Shown in pieces: positions 1,779 through 47,410 of a stretch of 64,000 nucleotides of DNA. This DNA comes from a phage. The stretch lies in sequence record PZ386965.1. The stretch is one strand, 5' to 3'. The notes under the pieces are model-generated. The model saw only the letters and a list, made by a program, of their open reading frames with translations, had not been told where the DNA came from and searched no databases. Each line of letters starts with the position of its first letter. The stretch's first letter is position 1. The position numbers and the translations under genes are program-made.

Positions 1779-3463
1779 TAGATTCGTTCCCATTGATGAG
1801 TGATATCGCCACCGATTGGACGATAGGAAACACCAGTTTCTTTATCAGTTAGTACCCATTTACCAGGATTTTTTGTAATCAGAGTAGCCATTACAGGTTC
1901 TGCTACGTCATAACTAATAGAGCCATCTTGAAGTACACGACCCATGTTACGTAATTGCTTAGTCAGAAGTTCCATACCTTTATAATATGCGGCTACCGCT
2001 TTAAGTGGATTATTCTTGAAATAACCACCTAATGCAATCCAGATAATTGCTACTGCCAAATGATGATACTCGTTAAACGAACTCATCTTTCCATATTTGT
2101 AAACTAATGGATTGATGTTAATAGTCACATTACAAGTTGTTTCATCAATAGTAAACTGTCCCCAGGTCGGATTAGCATTGAATTCATCATAACCTGAAAC
2201 AGCATAAAGCACTTTAGCTTCATCGTACAATTTTGGCCCGTAAATCTTGGTTTCACCAAAATATCCACGAGGGTCGATAAACTTGACTTCGCCGTTATCA
2301 GTAATCATAGTATTACTGAAGTTCGGGTCACCATGAATAACAGAGTACTGTCCCTGAGAACGGTTATGATAACGAATAAGATGTTCTAAAGCTTGTTTCA
2401 ACATTGGCTTCAGACGTCCAATCTTAGTGTAGTTCACGTGTGTGATTTTACCAAATGAATCAATCAATGGCTGAATGCTTTCACAACGATCAATAACTTT
2501 CGTATAGAACTCTTTAGTGAAATCACGGCGAACAGTTTCAGGACTTACAAAATAAGTGTCCGTGCTGAATTTCAGTGCATCTAAAATTGCATCAACAATT
2601 TGTGGACGAGCAAGACTTGATTTGGATTTAATATATTCAAATGCCGGCTTACCTTTAATACGTTCCATTTCAAAATTATTTTCATTTACCGAAACTAACT
2701 GAGGAACTGAATCTGATTTCACTTTCAAGTACCATGAAATCTCATCTTTTTGAAGAGCTCGACCTTGTTCGGTTAACGCGAATTTAGTTACAGTTTCTTC
2801 GCCAATTTCAACTGCATTAAAACTACGATTAAGTTCACGAACTTCATGAGCTTTTTCAAGTTTAGGCATATCACCTAAATCAATTAGATTCATAAGCTCT
2901 GATTTATTGAATGCACTCCCGTAAAGGAATTCTACAAAATCACGTCCTTTGCAGTATTCGTGAATTTCCTCATCAGTAGAACCCATGTAGAATTCCCAGT
3001 CTTTGAACTGATAAATTCCTACAACATTACCGCCTGTTGAACCTACGTTAGTGATATTTTCACCATCGAAATTATATCGACATTCATCACCCTTAACATA
3101 GATTGCGTTAACATTCCAAGACCATGAACCAAAATCAGGAATAATATCACACCAGTTAACAATTACGTTATGTCCATCTAAATCTTTGTATAATTTAGCA
3201 AGAGCATAAGCAGAACCATACGCTTCATCAACTGTACGAATAGTCACATTGAACCCTTCTTGCTCACAATAAGCTCGAACAGTTTCAGCAAATTTTGAAT
3301 GAACTACTACAATAATTTCATCTGCGCCAAGGTCAGAATAAATTGTATACAAATTGCTCAGAATAGTGTCTTGTTTATAGTTAACAAGCACCTTAGGAAT
3401 ATGATGCGTTATTGGATACAAACGAGTTGCCAGTCCAGCACCAAGAATAACAGCTTTTTTCAT
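1778..3463 (-). CDS. bifunctional sugar-1-phosphate nucleotidyltransferase / sugar kinase (APH-like)
   Basis: N-terminal GxGTRLxPIT-type signature (ILGAGLATRLYPIT) of NDP-sugar pyrophosphorylases; C-terminal HGDxxxxN (HGDPNFSN) and IDPRG kinase motifs. Confidence 0.7.
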   Translation of the reverse strand: MKKAVILGAGLATRLYPITHHIPKVLVNYKQDTILSNLYTIYSDLGADEIIVVVHSKFAETVRAYCEQEGFNVTIRTVDEAYGSAYALAKLYKDLDGHNVIVNWCDIIPDFGSWSWNVNAIYVKGDECRYNFDGENITNVGSTGGNVVGIYQFKDWEFYMGSTDEEIHEYCKGRDFVEFLYGSAFNKSELMNLIDLGDMPKLEKAHEVRELNRSFNAVEIGEETVTKFALTEQGRALQKDEISWYLKVKSDSVPQLVSVNENNFEMERIKGKPAFEYIKSKSSLARPQIVDAILDALKFSTDTYFVSPETVRRDFTKEFYTKVIDRCESIQPLIDSFGKITHVNYTKIGRLKPMLKQALEHLIRYHNRSQGQYSVIHGDPNFSNTMITDNGEVKFIDPRGYFGETKIYGPKLYDEAKVLYAVSGYDEFNANPTWGQFTIDETTCNVTININPLVYKYGKMSSFNEYHHLAVAIIWIALGGYFKNNPLKAVAAYYKGMELLTKQLRNMGRVLQDGSISYDVAEPVMATLITKNPGKWVLTDKETGVSYRPIGGDITHQWERI

Positions 3464-3504
3464 GTTGTGGTCCTCATTGGTAAGTAGGTGTATTGTACAC
3501 TATT

Positions 3505-3615
3505 CTAGTTAAAGCATTCATACTTTGCTTGTAGTCCAATCATAATCCATCCGATTATAAGAGTCGGAATCATTACTGGAGCCGTTAAGCTCCAGTAGAT
3601 AGTCATGACAAGCAT
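3505..3615 (-). CDS. possible small hydrophobic protein (36 aa)
   Basis: Short ORF MLVMTIYWSLTAPVMIPTLIIGWIMIGLQAKYECFN in the intergenic gap; no motif support. Confidence 0.2.
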   Translation of the reverse strand: MLVMTIYWSLTAPVMIPTLIIGWIMIGLQAKYECFN

Positions 3616-3644
3616 CAATAGTAAAAGTCCTATTGTTATTGCTT

Positions 3645-4280
3645 TCATTGCTCGCCTCGTAACATGGCACCTAGTGCACCGCCTGGATGGAACTTAAGGA
3701 AGTCATTAGAGGTAAATCCACGTTCAGACGAAAGGTTGATAGCGAACGTATCGATAAGCGCTAACAACAATGTAGTGGACATTGTCGGAGCTAAAGAGTT
3801 CTCGTCAACTTCTACCGCGATACCGGTACAGAACGTATAATCAAAAAGAGCTTCGTATTCTTGCGGAATGTCCGGGTTACAATGCAACAGAATCTGTTTA
3901 ACCTGAGGACGAATCATACGAAGATGTTTAGCAACACCTATCATTTCTTCAGTTTTACCAGAACGACTAATATGAATCAACACGTCATTAGGCGCAATGA
4001 ATCCTGCATCACCGTGAGAATAATGCCCAGTGTTCAAGTACATACTTGGGATACCGAGTGAAGCAAATGTCTCGGAAGCTTTAGTTGCAATATTAGCATT
4101 CTTACCAACACCTGTAATAATTACTCGGCTTTCATAATTACTAAGACCAGGGCGTCGAAGAGTTTCTAGAATAGCATTATAACGAGCAGGGTTTTGACTA
4201 ATTACTTTAGCCATAGCGGCCAAAGAAGAAGCTTGTTTTATGATTGCGTCAATAGCGATATTAATAGGAGTAGTTTTCAT
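3645..4280 (-). CDS. SIS-domain sugar-phosphate isomerase (arabinose-5-P / heptose isomerase-like)
   Basis: SIS-like phosphosugar-binding region (ITGVGKNANIATKASETFASLGI), ~210 aa typical of single-domain SIS isomerases. Confidence 0.65.
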   Translation of the reverse strand: MKTTPINIAIDAIIKQASSLAAMAKVISQNPARYNAILETLRRPGLSNYESRVIITGVGKNANIATKASETFASLGIPSMYLNTGHYSHGDAGFIAPNDVLIHISRSGKTEEMIGVAKHLRMIRPQVKQILLHCNPDIPQEYEALFDYTFCTGIAVEVDENSLAPTMSTTLLLALIDTFAINLSSERGFTSNDFLKFHPGGALGAMLRGEQ

Positions 4281-4320
4281 ATTTCTCTCATTTAATTAGT
4301 TTACCGTCCATGGTATTATA

Positions 4321-41545: not shown

Positions 41546-41786
41546 CTCGGTCCCATGATTTAGCCATTAATTCGGACATAAATTCTTCAATGCGCGTTTC
41601 TTTAGATGGACTTTCACTATTAGAGACCGCAAGTTTGTAATCTGCAATAGGACAGAACATATCAAGGTCCGTATTAAGGTCGTCTTTGATTTTTTCTTCT
41701 GACACATCTTTATCGTATGTGTACAGATAACTATCACATGATTCTGATTTAATGTAAATTGCTATACTCATCTCAAATTCCTGCAT
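41535..41786 (-). CDS. hypothetical acidic protein
   Basis: Track ORF. Confidence 0.45.
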   Translation of the reverse strand: MQEFEMSIAIYIKSESCDSYLYTYDKDVSEEKIKDDLNTDLDMFCPIADYKLAVSNSESPSKETRIEEFMSELMAKSWDRDDE

Positions 41787-42259
41787 TCGGTAATAAAACG
41801 TTCAACTTCATTATTCTTGGCCTTTATCTTGTCTTTACGTTCCTGTAAACTACTTTTAACAAGATTAATAATGATGGCGGCGGTACCGCCGCCAATGATG
41901 CCACCAACAACACTTATGATACTAGATGCTAATAAGATAGCAATAATATCAACAAAACCGAAAGAACTCACCTTAGTACTGAAAAACCATACCGACGGTA
42001 CAAATATAATCCATCCTGTTATCCATTGGCACTTATTGAAAAACTTTTCAAGCTCAGCTTGAGTTGTTCGTATTACTTCATCGATAGGTTGATATCCATT
42101 AATGTATCTGTTCACGATAATACCTGCTGGCTGGTCGATTTTAAATTCTTGGCAAATACGTTTCACTAAGTAGGATGGACATCCTGTCCAATCTACTGAA
42201 TAGTATGAAATACCTTCGTTGCCATCGTCTATATTAGACCAATATGTTTTGTTAATCAT
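41768..42259 (-). CDS. membrane protein
   Basis: Hydrophobic segments plus Gly-rich IGGGTAAIII. Confidence 0.5.
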   Translation of the reverse strand: MINKTYWSNIDDGNEGISYYSVDWTGCPSYLVKRICQEFKIDQPAGIIVNRYINGYQPIDEVIRTTQAELEKFFNKCQWITGWIIFVPSVWFFSTKVSSFGFVDIIAILLASSIISVVGGIIGGGTAAIIINLVKSSLQERKDKIKAKNNEVERFITECRNLR

Positions 42260-42946: not shown

Positions 42947-43252
42947 TTATTTTCCTCGACATTCTTTAATGAAATTTTCTAGATTGGTAGATTCAATAGC
43001 TTTTTTACGAGCTTCAGCGTGTTCTTCTTCAGTTAATCTACGTTTAAACTTGACCCAAACATTATGGTCGAAACCTGTTGTCGCGTATAATAACAGAGCA
43101 CCAACGAATAACAAAAACGGTGATAAAAATACACAACCAGGAACACCATCCATATCGTAAGCCTTTTGTAATACTGCAACAGAAAGAGCTGCGTAAAAAG
43201 GTGATGCAAATATTGTTAAAAGACCAATTCGGTTGGTTTCGCCTAATTTCAT
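42947..43252 (-). CDS. membrane protein
   Basis: Two hydrophobic helices. Confidence 0.5.
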   Translation of the reverse strand: MKLGETNRIGLLTIFASPFYAALSVAVLQKAYDMDGVPGCVFLSPFLLFVGALLLYATTGFDHNVWVKFKRRLTEEEHAEARKKAIESTNLENFIKECRGK

Positions 43253-43322: not shown

Positions 43323-44279
43323 TTATTTGAAAGGTTTTACCATATGAAAATTTTGTTTGAAACGCTTGACGTAATCGTCGTGTCCTAAGCTTTGATACAT
43401 ACTTACTACTTTGCCATAGTTCTCCCAGGCATACTCACGGAACCAGCCTGATGTGATTGAAGTACAGACCTTTTCTAATGCCATCATAAAACTATCACGA
43501 GGATGGATTTCAAAGCCATTAGGAATCTGAGAACGTTCTAATGCTAGTACACATGATTCTTCGTATACGCCGGCCAATTTGACCATTTCCGGTAATGATT
43601 CGAACTTCTCGCGTGAGGTCATGACTTCAGAACCATCTTTCATATAAAATGTATACGCTGGACGGTCTGTTAGTGCAATGGCTTCGTGAATAGTATCATG
43701 GTCATACGTATAGATGTCATCTTTAAAGAATGCGCTTTTAGAAGTGTCAAGAACCGGGTGAGCATAGTTCAAGGTTTCTTTCTGGCGTTTCAGCATAATT
43801 TCAGTAAGTTCATCGTCCAGTGTAACACCTTTACCACGAAGATACTGAATATGGTTCATAGTCTTTAAAAAGAATGGATTATTTTTCTTGAAACGATGAG
43901 ACATCTTAATTGCAAGACACATCTCAGGAGTTGCCCAGTAAAACCCGTTCAAACGGTCTTTAGTCAAATTTTTCTTGGCGTATTTTAAAAGGTCATAAGA
44001 AGACGTGAAATCTTCAGGAGTGAGTTCACCGACTAATTCACGGACATTAGTGATTGCCGGAACAATGTATGCTTCAAAATGAGTTTCGCGTCCGTTATGG
44101 AAGCATTTGAAAACTTGGACATCAGGGTTATCTTGGTGAACATATACACCCATCATTTGATTTTTGAATACATTCCAAGAACCTTGGTCCGCAATAAAGT
44201 CCCAATCACTATTTTTGATAGCGCTAGAATCAATAAGGCCGTGATAGTGAAGTGCACGAGAACCAATAACCAACATCAT
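43323..44279 (-). CDS. hypothetical 318-aa protein
   Basis: Long ORF. Confidence 0.6.
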   Translation of the reverse strand: MMLVIGSRALHYHGLIDSSAIKNSDWDFIADQGSWNVFKNQMMGVYVHQDNPDVQVFKCFHNGRETHFEAYIVPAITNVRELVGELTPEDFTSSYDLLKYAKKNLTKDRLNGFYWATPEMCLAIKMSHRFKKNNPFFLKTMNHIQYLRGKGVTLDDELTEIMLKRQKETLNYAHPVLDTSKSAFFKDDIYTYDHDTIHEAIALTDRPAYTFYMKDGSEVMTSREKFESLPEMVKLAGVYEESCVLALERSQIPNGFEIHPRDSFMMALEKVCTSITSGWFREYAWENYGKVVSMYQSLGHDDYVKRFKQNFHMVKPFK

Positions 44280-44304: not shown

Positions 44305-44556
44305 TTAAATTTCGCGACATGCGATATTATATTCATCCCAGAGGTCGTCATGTGAAGCCTCTACCAATGGAACGATTGTGCCGTTTATGTCTTCATTATA
44401 AGGGCAAATTGTACAGTGCGCATCTTCGAATCGGATGCCTTTGTGTTCAGATTTTTTATAACGCATATCGAATATCTTTGCAAACTTTTCACGAGTAATA
44501 GTTTTAGCAACTACTTCGGTTCCGATACTTTCGTAATAAATCATTGTAGACTCCAT
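44305..44556 (-). CDS. hypothetical cysteine-containing protein
   Basis: Track ORF. Confidence 0.5.
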   Translation of the reverse strand: MESTMIYYESIGTEVVAKTITREKFAKIFDMRYKKSEHKGIRFEDAHCTICPYNEDINGTIVPLVEASHDDLWDEYNIACREI

Positions 44557-44606: not shown

Positions 44607-44804
44607 TTAGCAAGAATAACTAGATGATACCCAGCCTTGAACAGTAATACTATTATTTGATAACGAGATTGCGTCCTGGAGATTAAGACCTGCGTTATCT
44701 TCAATCCACAATGTAACTTCTTCACGCTCTTCGGTTGCAATCTGGAACAGGTTTTCTAGGGCAGCTACTGCTGTACGTACAGCACAATCTAATTCACGAG
44801 ACAT
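44607..44804 (-). CDS. small protein, WVSSSxxC C-terminal family member A
   Basis: Ends ...QGWVSSSYSC. Confidence 0.55.
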   Translation of the reverse strand: MSRELDCAVRTAVAALENLFQIATEEREEVTLWIEDNAGLNLQDAISLSNNSITVQGWVSSSYSC

Positions 44805-44813
44805 ATGATTTCC

Positions 44814-45086
44814 TTAACAAGTGTGAGAAGATGCAACCCAACCGCCATCTTCAAGGCTCAAGTTGTAGTCGTATTGGTAAACATCGGCCCATTCAGCATA
44901 ACCGTTTTTTGTACAACGTTCAAGATCGGCTTTAAGATGTCCTGGCGAATGATAGGTTCCACCCATGCCATAAGCTGGATACAAGTCGAATGTTGTGTTT
45001 TGTTTATCAGCAATTTCTTTGGCAGCCTCAATAGCTGCATAGATTTTTGCTACGGCTTCAGCCAGTTCGGTTTGTTCTTTAGACAT
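44814..45086 (-). CDS. small protein, WVSSSxxC C-terminal family member B
   Basis: Ends ...GGWVASSHTC; shares YGxGxTY motif with member C. Confidence 0.6.
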   Translation of the reverse strand: MSKEQTELAEAVAKIYAAIEAAKEIADKQNTTFDLYPAYGMGGTYHSPGHLKADLERCTKNGYAEWADVYQYDYNLSLEDGGWVASSHTC

Positions 45087-45095
45087 AATGATTCC

Positions 45096-45401
45096 TTAGC
45101 ACAACGCAGAAGACGAAACCCAAGCACCTTCAGTAATAACGTAACCATTACCTTCACGCTTAACGTCGCCACCATTATTTTCAATTTCATTTTTCATCCA
45201 CTGGGATACGATTTCACCCTTAGGATAATAAGTACGACCGCTACCATAATCACCTACAGAAAACGATACAGCGTATTGGTCTGCGATCTTTGTTGCTTCT
45301 TCTTCGATACGTTCAGCTTGATTCAGAAGTTTATAAATTGCATCTGAAGCGGATTTGGCATCATTAAACTCTGGTACTTTAATTTCAATAATCTTACTCA
45401 T
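45096..45401 (-). CDS. small protein, WVSSSxxC C-terminal family member C
   Basis: Ends ...GAWVSSSALC. Confidence 0.6.
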   Translation of the reverse strand: MSKIIEIKVPEFNDAKSASDAIYKLLNQAERIEEEATKIADQYAVSFSVGDYGSGRTYYPKGEIVSQWMKNEIENNGGDVKREGNGYVITEGAWVSSSALC

Positions 45402-45757
45402 TTTCTACATTCCTTAATAAAGTTTTCGATTGTTTCATTTTCACGTCTAGCTAGGAGTTCATTATAACTAATCATTTGAGAAGCGTAAACCTTTTTATTT
45501 TTCTTGTTATGGTTTATAAAATCGTAGTAAAAATAGACTACAGTACAAAAGGATGCTATTGATGCAAAGGCTTGGGTATACCGTAAGTCCTGCCATTGGT
45601 CTGTGAATCCACCGGTGTTACCTATAAATCCTAACACAACGCCATCAATAAGAAATCCAACTAATCCAAAGGCAAATCCCATGCCAATACTCATAATAAA
45701 AATTAGAATGTTCTCGCCAAGAGAAGGCCATACGGTTAAGAGTTGAGGCTTTTGCAT
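45398..45757 (-). CDS. membrane protein
   Basis: Multiple hydrophobic helices. Confidence 0.5.
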   Translation of the reverse strand: MQKPQLLTVWPSLGENILIFIMSIGMGFAFGLVGFLIDGVVLGFIGNTGGFTDQWQDLRYTQAFASIASFCTVVYFYYDFINHNKKNKKVYASQMISYNELLARRENETIENFIKECRK

Positions 45758-46131
45758 CTTATTTCCTTAACGAATTCCATAGCTTCTTCATATTCATACT
45801 TTTTAACAGCTTCAACATACTGAGCTTGGGCTTTTGCGCACTGAACTTTCCACTCGCGAACTCGAGCTCTGTGATGACGGCCTTGGTGCCAATATCCTGC
45901 CCAATTAATAGGCATTAATAAAAACGGTACAATAAGTGGTGCGACGAACATTAATGAAAACGCTGCATCAGACGATATAACTTTATTGGAATCTAAAATA
46001 GCTCCTATAATCATAAAGATTAAAAATGCTAAAGCTAAAATAGGGCCAAATAGTACTTCGTTTGGGATTAATTTACGTTTGTATTCGTATGCCCAGGGCT
46101 TAATTGGCATGTACAGGGTTGGCTTTGACAT
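45736..46131 (-). CDS. membrane protein
   Basis: Hydrophobic helices; start uncertain (track start is non-ATG). Confidence 0.45.
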   Translation of the reverse strand: MSKPTLYMPIKPWAYEYKRKLIPNEVLFGPILALAFLIFMIIGAILDSNKVISSDAAFSLMFVAPLIVPFLLMPINWAGYWHQGRHHRARVREWKVQCAKAQAQYVEAVKKYEYEEAMEFVKEIRCKSLNS

Positions 46132-46696
46132 ATTCTCTACATTCCATAATAAATTGCTCAAGGATTAAATTGTTAGTGAAATTAGGACTAACAACCATAG
46201 TTTCATAAAGCGCATCAATAGCACTTAAAGCATCAACTCTTTTAAGCAAAGGCTTGCCTTCATACATAGTTTCAGAATCGATGATTAACGTAAAGTAATA
46301 TTTTTTATTATCGACTAGAACTTCTGTATCGATATAAAACATATTAGACCTCAGAAGCTTATCTCTAAAACCATAATAATCTTCTGAACGTTCGCTGATA
46401 TATTCCCATTCAGTGTTTAAACAACAAACAGACCATGTAGGAGCAACGAAATCAGTGAATCTAATATCATGGTCTGCAACTAGTTTAGCAATAGCTCCGA
46501 TATCATGAATCATAATACCTGGGGCTAATAAAGATTTTCGGCGATTTGCGTATTCAGTTGTCTCATAAGAAGCTGACCAGTACCATTTACGTCCAGTTGC
46601 AACATATCGTAATGAATCAACTAAAGACGTAGGTGGATTTACCTTATCTCGGAACTCTTCGAACATTGAGTCAATATCATTATTTTGGTTTCGCAT
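46100..46696 (-). CDS. hypothetical protein
   Basis: ATG with AAAGGAG RBS. Confidence 0.55.
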   Translation of the reverse strand: MRNQNNDIDSMFEEFRDKVNPPTSLVDSLRYVATGRKWYWSASYETTEYANRRKSLLAPGIMIHDIGAIAKLVADHDIRFTDFVAPTWSVCCLNTEWEYISERSEDYYGFRDKLLRSNMFYIDTEVLVDNKKYYFTLIIDSETMYEGKPLLKRVDALSAIDALYETMVVSPNFTNNLILEQFIMECREYVKANPVHAN

Positions 46697-46745
46697 GTTA
46701 ACTCCTTTATTATCCAAAAGGAGGACCGGAGTCCTCCGTATTATT

Positions 46746-47339
46746 TTATTTCAAAGAGTTAATATATTCTTGTACATCAGCAGAAGTGGTTTCGACACCG
46801 GCTGGAGTACCATTGAACGTTTCAACACGAGTCAGAGTGTCTTCGATATCAACCTTGGTCAGTGCAGCAATTTCGATCACATCATCGGCCGTAGAGATAC
46901 CAAGGGCATTGGCTGCTCGAGTTTCGCGGATGTATTCAAGTTTGATTGCCAGATTCTGACGAGCATCGTCAAGTTCAACCACCTTACGAGCAATTTCAAT
47001 TCGCATAGCGGCATAACCGTCAGCTTTTGTATTAAGTTGTTCGGCAGTTCGACGATACAGAAGACCAAGCTTAGCATGCATGGTAACATCTTGTCCTTCA
47101 GCCAGGAGCTTACGAATTTCACGTTCCTTAGAAGCGGCTTGCTTGTTCTTTTCATTAACAAGTTCGCGAATACGTTTTTCTTCATTAATAGATTTAACAG
47201 AAGCCGTTTTTAGTTCTTTGATTTGGGTAATCAACTTATCTGCGGCTGCGTTATACTGTTCTTCGACAGTCAGATTTTTAGCCATAGCAGTACCCAGTTT
47301 AGTGCGGATGAATTCAACAAGTTTCTTCAGTGTGTTCAT
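46746..47339 (-). CDS. coiled-coil protein (PspA/IM30-like architecture?)
   Basis: ~197 aa, mostly helical heptad repeats. Confidence 0.5.
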
Positions 47340-47364
47340 ATTATTACCTTTCAATTGGTGGTTT

Positions 47365-47410
47365 ATTATCCATGAGAGCATTATACTCTGCTCTCAAGAG
47401 TTTGTACACT
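47365..47410 (-). promoter_or_regulatory. early promoter / stem-loop cassette
   Basis: GAGAGC..GCTCTC inverted repeat around TATAAT, TGTACA -35 on minus. Confidence 0.5.

Follow-up and report, generated by a model that had tools for sequence, protein, structure and literature searches.

PspA (PF04012) of Escherichia coli is the effector of the phage-shock response, which is controlled in the host by sigma-54 and PspF, and the N-terminal helix a0 is the membrane-binding helix of both PspA and Vipp1. T4 is the reference lytic phage, and about half of its genes are without known function. In this study, we analyzed a stretch of 64,000 nucleotides of phage DNA (record PZ386965.1; called the window throughout) and describe an open reading frame (ORF) at 46746..47339, the counterpart of T4 gene e.6, as a probable divergent homologue of PspA/IM30 in the ESCRT-III superfamily. 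All features described below lie on the minus strand of the window.

In bacteria, PspA homologues usually act together with small membrane partners, such as PspBC or LiaI, and many cyanobacterial pspA/vipp1 genes stand alone without PspF or PspBC (PMC9239133). The psp operon of the host is strongly induced by phiX174 and weakly or partially by T4 (PMC12795941). In phages, Gp_125 of the Kuttervirus SeF3a, a member of phrog_1203, was described as homologous to PspA by pdb70 comparison, and a role against abortive infection was hypothesised for it (Gendre et al. 2022, PMC9409062); also, the name "PspA/IM30 family protein" is used in one Kuttervirus record of GenBank. In the literature, we found no paper linking T4 e.6, Straboviridae proteins or T4-like phages to PspA, and e.6 is still listed as unknown in the T4 RefSeq record and in PHROGs. 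The assignment made here is hence an extension of a published in-silico suggestion to the model phage T4 and to >1,000 genomes, and not a new kind of system.

Identity of the gene

The genome in the window is a Mosigvirus (RB69-like), and the 2 kb around the ORF are 97-98% identical to many Mosigvirus records; the same gene is annotated in vB_EcoM_SA79RD as similar to RB69/T4 e.6. T4 e.6 itself (69312..69905, 197 residues) has the RefSeq label "conserved hypothetical protein", and the window protein is identical to its product at 88% of amino acids, with 80% identity of nucleotides and a ratio of nonsynonymous to synonymous substitution (dN/dS) of 0.065. The protein also matches phrog_1203 ("unknown function") with E=6e-87, and the gene order e.6-e.5-e.4-e.3 is common to the window and T4, with e.2 directly after e.3 in T4 and further downstream in the window. 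Judged by its sequence, the ORF is the Mosigvirus orthologue of T4 e.6. Given the dN/dS value and the nucleotide identity, we therefore consider e.6 a real gene under strong purifying selection; indeed, the ORF of ~197 residues proposed in a preliminary description of this DNA is real, the T4 e.6 protein having also been detected by proteomics.

Homology to PspA and Vipp1

Two profiles of the e.6 family were used: A1, made from close relatives of e.6, and A2, a 44-sequence alignment including distant members from an exhaustive search. The reference alignment of PspA and Vipp1 (A3) consisted of 15 cyanobacterial Vipp1 and 9 enterobacterial PspA sequences, the former being added because a word-indexed search with E. 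coli PspA gave near-identical enterobacterial sequences only. When compared by hhalign, A2 matched A3 with Prob 95.2 and E=2.7e-8 over 194 columns, in which residues 1-197 of e.6 are placed on residues 1-219 of PspA/Vipp1. In this register, Met1 falls on Met1, the a0 helices are aligned with R12 on a conserved Arg, the FERME region of a4 is matched by VETF, and the C-terminal 10-residue segment falls on DELAxLKAQ of a5. The score of the real comparison was 58.4, while a reversed template or query gave 15.5 and 16.8, and 20 block-shuffled templates gave 15.7-35.4. Without the individually Pfam-positive members (P0056, P0062, and P0063), Prob was 93.4 (E=2.4e-7); without the whole distant clade, it was 62% (E=7.6e-5), still at full length. 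Because the controls score low and Prob falls as distant members are removed, the PspA signal in these profiles is judged to be real, yet dependent on the depth of the family.

Searches of the PDB gave a concordant picture: the best eight matches of A2 were Vipp1/PspA chains (E=4e-5 to 1.6e-3), which ranked above all other coiled coils and in which residues 1-147 aligned to positions 1-146 of the profile. A1 reached Vipp1 at E=0.4-0.9 only, yet collinearly from the N-terminus. Furthermore, members of the e.6 family themselves match PF04012 in 5 of the 44 cases, and two of them, P0063 (39.0 bits) and P0056 (35.1 bits), stand above the gathering score of 33.9 bits; the contigs of these two hold T4-type replication genes (uvsX, gp41, ligase). 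A direct alignment of the window protein to P0063 covers 172 residues, C-terminal region included (E=5e-13). The close relatives of P0063 are in Ackermannviridae phages, one being annotated as "PspA/IM30 family protein", and the more distant matches of P0063 include the genes annotated as e.6 in RB43 and phiAS4.

When A3 was divided, the e.6 family matched the Vipp1-type subset with Prob 94 and the enterobacterial PspA subset with Prob 50-74, although both reference sets are shallow. The family is thus closer to Vipp1-type sequences than to enterobacterial PspA, and a recent capture of the host gene is therefore disfavoured. The PspA/IM30-like appearance noticed in the preliminary description is supported through profiles and intermediates, and the comparison with PspA/IM30 profiles brought up no competing, unrelated coiled-coil family. 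We consider it very probable that e.6 is a highly diverged and shortened member of the PspA/IM30/Vipp1 family, which belongs to the ESCRT-III superfamily.

Predicted structure

Structural features were taken from two AlphaFold2 models (mean pLDDT 77-78), in which DSSP assigned helices to residues 3-22, 25-80, 86-145, 152-160, 166-173, and 186-196. These make up ~84% of the residues, in agreement with the earlier statement that the protein is almost entirely helical. The models show the ESCRT-III layout, namely, a long a1/a2-a3 hairpin followed by the shorter helices a4 and a5; no transmembrane or hydrophobic segment was found in e.6, and the protein qualifies neither as a member of a BAR-domain family nor as a dimeric crescent.

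The predicted basic amphipathic helix at the N-terminus (codons 2-22, 47274..47336) corresponds to a0 of PspA/Vipp1 and aligns to residues 1-22 of Vipp1. Its pLDDT is ~46-49 in both models, i.e., the helix is unpacked, and its hydrophobic moment of 0.435, with a net charge of +3, matches that of a0 in E. coli PspA (0.422). The long helical hairpin (codons 25-145, 46905..47267), which consists of helices 25-80 and 86-145 with a turn at 81-85, is modelled with pLDDT of 85-97, aligns to residues 25-146 of Vipp1, and equals the a1/a2+a3 hairpin of PspA/Vipp1/ESCRT-III. A conserved 10-residue motif opening its second arm aligns with LAREALxRKK of PspA/Vipp1. The heptad periodicity claimed earlier for the protein holds for helix 25-80, where 0.3% of shuffled sequences exceed the power at 3.5 residues, but is not significant in helix 86-145. 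The remaining part (codons 146-197, 46749..46904) begins with a hinge of the conserved sequence LGI and continues with a pair of short helices and the C-terminal helix; pLDDT is low to medium here, and hhalign aligns the part to a4 (FERME) and a5 (DELAxLKAQ). This a4/a5-like region is shorter than in bacterial PspA, and G147 and Y192 are nearly invariant across the 44 family sequences.

In a Foldseek search against the PDB, ranks 1-8 were all occupied by Vipp1 chains (best E=4.8e-4), and further matches were the archaeal ESCRT-III protein CdvB2 and Synechocystis PspA. Against viral models, the own family of e.6 came first, followed by a giant-virus Snf7 (rank 8) and an Acinetobacter-phage "PspA/IM30 family protein" (rank 10), both interleaved with unrelated proteins. 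The modelled fold of e.6 is hence compatible with the PspA assignment without proving it, and the sequence profiles are the main argument.

Distribution

By tblastn, e.6 was found in 1,102 of 50,697 phage records, with at least 80% query coverage in 1,100 of them, their hosts being, among others, Escherichia, Shigella, Klebsiella, Enterobacter, Yersinia, Citrobacter, Serratia, and Aeromonas. In 1.84 billion representative proteins, searched exhaustively with HMMER, the family comprised only 45 clusters; the complete ones have 195-209 residues, and the shorter ones cover part of the profile. The family is conserved across Straboviridae and in part of Ackermannviridae and is near-universal in T-even-type (Tevenvirinae-type) phages; in T4, the gene lies in the e-tRNA region amid small accessory ORFs without assigned function. 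A protein of this kind had been thought an unusual cargo for a T4-type phage; from its distribution, e.6 is instead a standard, conserved gene of such phages. We also noticed that homologues of e.6 are labelled "host specificity protein" in many GenBank/UniRef entries and "Tail completion protein" in one BFVD entry. Both names look like propagated mis-annotations without support.

Outside the T-even-type phages, the PspA-like genes of Kuttervirus differ in their occurrence. In the stretch of Salmonella phage vB_SentM_sal1 compared with STML-13-1, the PspA-like gene, a gene for a 190-residue membrane protein, and most of a gene for an 86-residue transmembrane protein form one indel of 1,409 bp (2889..4297 of the sal1 stretch), flanked by a conserved ORF on one side and by the DNA ligase gene on the other. 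The stretch appears to be missing from many Kuttervirus genomes (~70% query coverage), the breakpoints having been verified in STML-13-1 only. In Ackermannviridae, the PspA-like gene is followed by genes for small transmembrane proteins, and a looser motif, Phi-Phi-x-x-A-R, is found in them. We also considered whether e.6 and e.5 are conserved as a pair in sequence, and rejected this because the downstream gene in Ackermannviridae has no BLASTP similarity to e.5; as far as the sequences tell, the resemblance of that neighbour to e.5 is one of position and tail motif only.

Start codon, transcription signals, and expression

The e.6 gene reads from ATG at 47339 to the stop at 46746. In all homologues and in the PHROG profile, Met at 47339 is the first residue, and a Shine-Dalgarno sequence, GAAAGG (47347..47352), is located 7 nucleotides 5' of this ATG, with its AAGG being kept in T4. 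Directly 5' of e.6, furthermore, a consensus scan gave a promoter-like site of the sigma-70/T4-early type, TGTACA-17-TATAAT (47380..47408), and the T4 early promoter GTTTACA...TATTAT is found at the same position; from sequence, we infer a promoter role for the window site. In the scan, sites of this type show no overall enrichment in the e.6 region. A mechanical reading of the ORF would begin at an upstream ATG (47381) and give 211 residues. This ATG is overlapped by the -10 hexamer of the promoter-like site, and we rejected the longer reading because the starts of the homologues, the GAAAGG sequence, and the -10 overlap all point to 47339. As for expression, time-resolved omics of T4 lists e.6 as "early RNA, middle protein" and detected it as a protein (PMC9697503, supplement).

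Between e.6 and e.5, a scan revealed a G+C-rich hairpin, GGAGGACTCCGGTCCTCC, followed by TTTT (46720..46737), where a terminator is annotated in SA79RD. T4 has a hairpin with another stem, GGGGCTTCGGCCCC, in the same place. Two roles are conceivable for the hairpin 3' of e.6, weak termination or stabilisation of the RNA. A rho-independent terminator is also annotated in SA79RD just upstream of e.6, and its counterpart in the window (47364..47397) has a GAGAGC/GCTCTC stem, the promoter -10 hexamer TATAAT in the loop, and no T-run. This terminator call was not adopted, given the overlap with the -10 hexamer and the lack of a T-run; rather than terminating transcription, the stem could mask the e.6 promoter, or modulate it, when formed in read-through RNA.

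Neighbouring genes and their C-terminal tails

Three membrane-protein genes had been described as lying beside e.6. Indeed, e.3, e.4, and an e.2-like gene encode hydrophobic segments, but e.6 directly adjoins the gene of the soluble e.5 and is 4.5 kb distant from the e.2-like gene; the earlier list had also missed one membrane ORF, the fourth (42947..43252). Directly downstream of e.6 is e.5 (46100..46696; phrog_2607), which encodes a soluble protein of 198 residues with the C-terminal tail FIMECR and is a candidate partner of e.6. Then follow e.4 (45736..46131), a small protein with two hydrophobic segments and the tail FVKEIRC, and e.3 (45398..45757), a small membrane protein with the tail FIKECRK immediately before the stop, both of which are candidate membrane partners. 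The tail F-I/V-x-E-C-R is present in the e.2-like protein (41768..42259), the membrane ORF at 42947..43252, e.3, and e.5, and variants of it occur in e.4 and in the ORF at 44305..44556 (YNIACREI). Four of these six tail-bearing ORFs encode membrane proteins, and all six belong to different PHROGs without assigned function.

When all six frames of the window were searched, the strict motif, which was defined post hoc after seeing the data, occurred four times, each time 1-11 residues from the stop of a tail-bearing ORF. An origin of the tail from Shine-Dalgarno sequences (AAGGAA encoding K-E) was rejected, because it fits e.3 only and codon usage differs. The codons used for the motif differ between the copies, and the motif is therefore conserved at the protein level. 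T4 has the same tails, and so do Marfa, CHI14, and avDM5 downstream of e.6; in these last three phages, it is the gene directly after e.6 that bears a tail of this kind.

Some further features of the cluster may be recorded. In the gap between e.2 and nudE in the T4 stretch compared (~3472..3560, minus strand), a frame ending in NNFITECRKLK and a stop extends into the beginning of nudE and has no counterpart in the T4 annotation shown; this may be either a small ORF left unannotated or what remains of an e.2-like gene with the same tail motif. Three consecutive small soluble ORFs of the window (44607..44804, 44814..45086, and 45096..45401) end in G-x-W-V-S/A-S-S-x-x-C, and tails of WVSSSEMC, WVSSSMEC, and WVSSSETC occur after the e.3/e.4-like genes of Marfa and CHI14. 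The three WVSS-tailed ORFs look like a small paralogous family. The same accessory cluster also has an ORF of 318 residues (43323..44279), a conserved phage protein with matches to Pfam DUF7277 (E=3e-27) and DUF7275 (E=2e-78).

Among the ten neighbouring ORFs scanned, no Pfam match to the PspB, PspC, or PspF families was obtained, and no similarity of e.3, e.4, or e.5 to the LiaI or PspBC families was detected. The marks of a proteobacterial Psp system, namely linked pspF, pspB, and pspC and control by sigma-54, were thus not found for e.6 within these ten ORFs, and its promoter-like site is of the sigma-70/T4-early type.

Proposed role of e.6 and alternatives

By analogy with bacterial PspA, T4-type phages probably carry a membrane-protection protein of their own. 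The mechanism that we favour, to which we would give about an even chance of being right, is that of a constitutive, regulator-free PspA guarding the inner membrane and the proton-motive force during infection. Synthesis of e.6 would begin in the first minutes of infection and would not depend on the sigma-54/PspF-controlled Psp response of the host, and the protein would bind the cytoplasmic face of the inner membrane via its basic amphipathic N-terminal helix. Through its hairpin and C-terminal helices, it would polymerise into PspA-like coats or rods sealing proton leaks, and the proton-motive force would be kept up while the envelope is punctured, small membrane proteins are inserted, and holin accumulates. 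Premature holin triggering or a membrane collapse of the abortive-infection type would then be prevented, so that programmed lysis would be reached in an energised state; a further effect of e.6 could be to weaken those defence systems in which the cell is killed by depolarisation. The small membrane-protein genes after e.6, resembling the company of PspBC or LiaI in which bacterial PspA or LiaH is found, are counted here as supporting context.

Several points weigh against this assignment and role. The window protein alone gave no PspA match in Pfam, NCBIfam, or the PDB (by phmmer), and PF04012 was not matched even at E<=10. Compared with the PspA and Vipp1 alignment, A1 gave just Prob 14, so the link to PspA is transitive, and the HMMER match to Vipp1 carries a high composition bias. 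Among the hallmarks of PspA, both AEDP after a0 and the FERME motif are replaced in e.6, and its a4/a5 region, besides being short, has low model confidence (residues ~150-180). The amphipathicity of the N-terminal helix, one of the earlier claims, stands as far as its hydrophobic moment is concerned, but it is statistically unexceptional, with a position in the 7% tail of shuffled sequences, and a0 of E. coli PspA does not stand far outside such sequences either. We found no functional study of e.6 in the literature searched with T4 terms, and the membrane binding and oligomerisation proposed for it are hypothetical. With these points considered, a diverged PspA-type e.6 with a membrane-protection mechanism is on balance probable as the best explanation as a whole.

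As a more speculative proposal, which we hold to be rather doubtful, e.6 might act as effector in a "Psp module" that the phage encodes without a regulator, and the small proteins encoded just downstream would be its docking or sensing partners at the membrane, recognised by their common C-terminal tail (E/D)-x-Phi-Phi-x-x-[C/A]-R. The partners would be e.5, e.4, e.3, the e.2-like protein, and ORF133c in T-even-type phages and the small transmembrane proteins in Ackermannviridae. Such a module would be analogous to PspA-PspBC and LiaH-LiaI, with phage partners drawn from unrelated proteins; if true, it would be a viral ESCRT-III-type system for membrane maintenance in the best-studied phage.

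Alternatively, e.6 might derive from PspA but have been repurposed: without sealing membranes itself, it would be a cytoplasmic scaffold or adaptor that docks onto, organises, or regulates the small phage membrane proteins with FIxECR tails (of the e.2, e.3, e.4, and e.5 type), or else a decoy for PspF, PspBC, or PspA of the host. The strict tail is confined to C-termini in the e.x cluster within the window and is met again after e.6 in T4, Marfa, CHI14, and avDM5; in Kuttervirus, a single 1.4-kb indel takes in the PspA-like gene together with two genes for membrane proteins; the a4/a5 region of e.6 has diverged from bacterial PspA; and small membrane anchors are used by bacterial PspA homologues (PMC9239133). 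The interactions with the partners are, however, purely hypothetical, the post hoc motif is looser in Ackermannviridae, and the link to the neighbours there, which have no BLASTP similarity to e.5, is positional only. A PspF decoy, in turn, seems needless because T4 infection induces psp weakly. We regard repurposing as unlikely.

A role in counter-defence has been proposed for a member of phrog_1203 by Gendre et al. (2022, PMC9409062): the phage PspA would neutralise abortive-infection or toxin systems that depolarise or permeabilise the inner membrane (Rex-type and similar) and would not serve general housekeeping. Consistent with this, the cassette in Kuttervirus is a patchy indel, as is typical of accessory or counter-defence genes, and e.6 lies amid small accessory ORFs in the e-tRNA region of T4. 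Nonetheless, the gene is near-universal and strongly conserved in Tevenvirinae-type phages, for which a general role fits better than that of an arms-race gene, and we consider a specific counter-defence role to be improbable; it also overlaps with the favoured guarding of the membrane, the activity being the same and the selective benefit different.

A generic coiled coil (spanin-like, scaffold, or virion protein), with the PspA similarity as an artefact of composition and heptads, could be suspected from weak matches to an Rz-like spanin (E=0.046) and LysB (E=0.023), from some homologues being labelled "host specificity protein" or "tail completion protein", and from the high bias score of the HMMER match, but is very hard to reconcile with reversed and shuffled profile controls far under the real hhalign score, with an alignment collinear from Met1 to the C-terminus with motifs in common, with family members passing the curated PspA threshold of Pfam, with the lack of a transmembrane segment or lipobox in e.6 and Rz-like/LysB scores far below cut-offs (against a spanin), and with early RNA, middle protein, and an early-type promoter unlike those of a late structural gene, no similarity to tail families, and unsupported database labels (against a virion protein).

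Placing e.6 in the PspA/Vipp1/ESCRT-III superfamily gives a concrete hypothesis that is genetically testable, namely that the phage supplies its own protein for membrane repair and the proton-motive force early, while the Psp response of the host is only weakly induced. The hypothesis bears on how infected cells stay energised until programmed lysis, lysis inhibition included, on the resistance of phages to defence by membrane depolarisation, and on how widely viruses of bacteria took up ESCRT-III-type proteins. Also, more than 1,000 phage genes that are now "hypothetical" or mislabelled ("host specificity protein") could be re-annotated.

Comparison with known systems

The nearest phage relatives of e.6 outside the T-even-type group are those of Kuttervirus and other Ackermannviridae, such as SeF3a Gp_125 and ORF8 of vB_SentM_sal1 ("PspA/IM30 family protein"), which like e.6 belong to phrog_1203, have ~200 residues, and are followed by small membrane-protein genes. 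Their identity to the window protein is 22-27%, and, unlike the proteins of T-even phages and Mosigvirus, Ackermannviridae members pass PF04012. The position of the gene also differs, being between dsbA/gp41 and DNA ligase in Ackermannviridae, and the patchy indel of Kuttervirus contrasts with the near-universal e.6 of T-even-type phages.

Among cellular proteins, Vipp1/IM30 of cyanobacteria and chloroplasts (Synechocystis sll0617; PDB 7O3W, 8QFV, and 6ZVR) is the best profile and Foldseek match of e.6. The two have in common an N-terminal amphipathic helix, which in e.6 is predicted, a hairpin of a1 and a2+a3 of equal length, a basic motif opening a2, and a4/a5-like helices; as with many cyanobacterial pspA/vipp1 genes, furthermore, e.6 is a stand-alone unit without PspF or PspBC among the ten neighbouring ORFs scanned. 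On the other hand, 14-18% of residues are identical between the two, e.6 has kept neither AEDP nor FERME, and it has 197 residues without the C-terminal a6 extension, whereas Vipp1 has ~260. Also unlike Vipp1, e.6 is phage-encoded, with an early-type promoter, and is known here from sequence and models.

E. coli PspA is of the same family by profile comparison, has a similar hydrophobic moment in a0, and would presumably share with e.6 the activity of binding the inner membrane and limiting proton leak. e.6 is nonetheless nearer to Vipp1-type sequences and has probably not been copied from the host gene in recent times; it is 25 residues shorter than E. coli PspA, and its transcription is constitutive and early instead of being induced by stress via sigma-54. 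Finally, the e.6 locus resembles LiaH-LiaI of Bacillus subtilis in that the gene for a PspA-family effector adjoins those for small membrane proteins, which are possible recruiters; the phage neighbours differ from LiaI in having no detected similarity to it, and an interaction with e.6 is hypothetical here, whereas the arrangement of an effector beside small membrane proteins is common to both.

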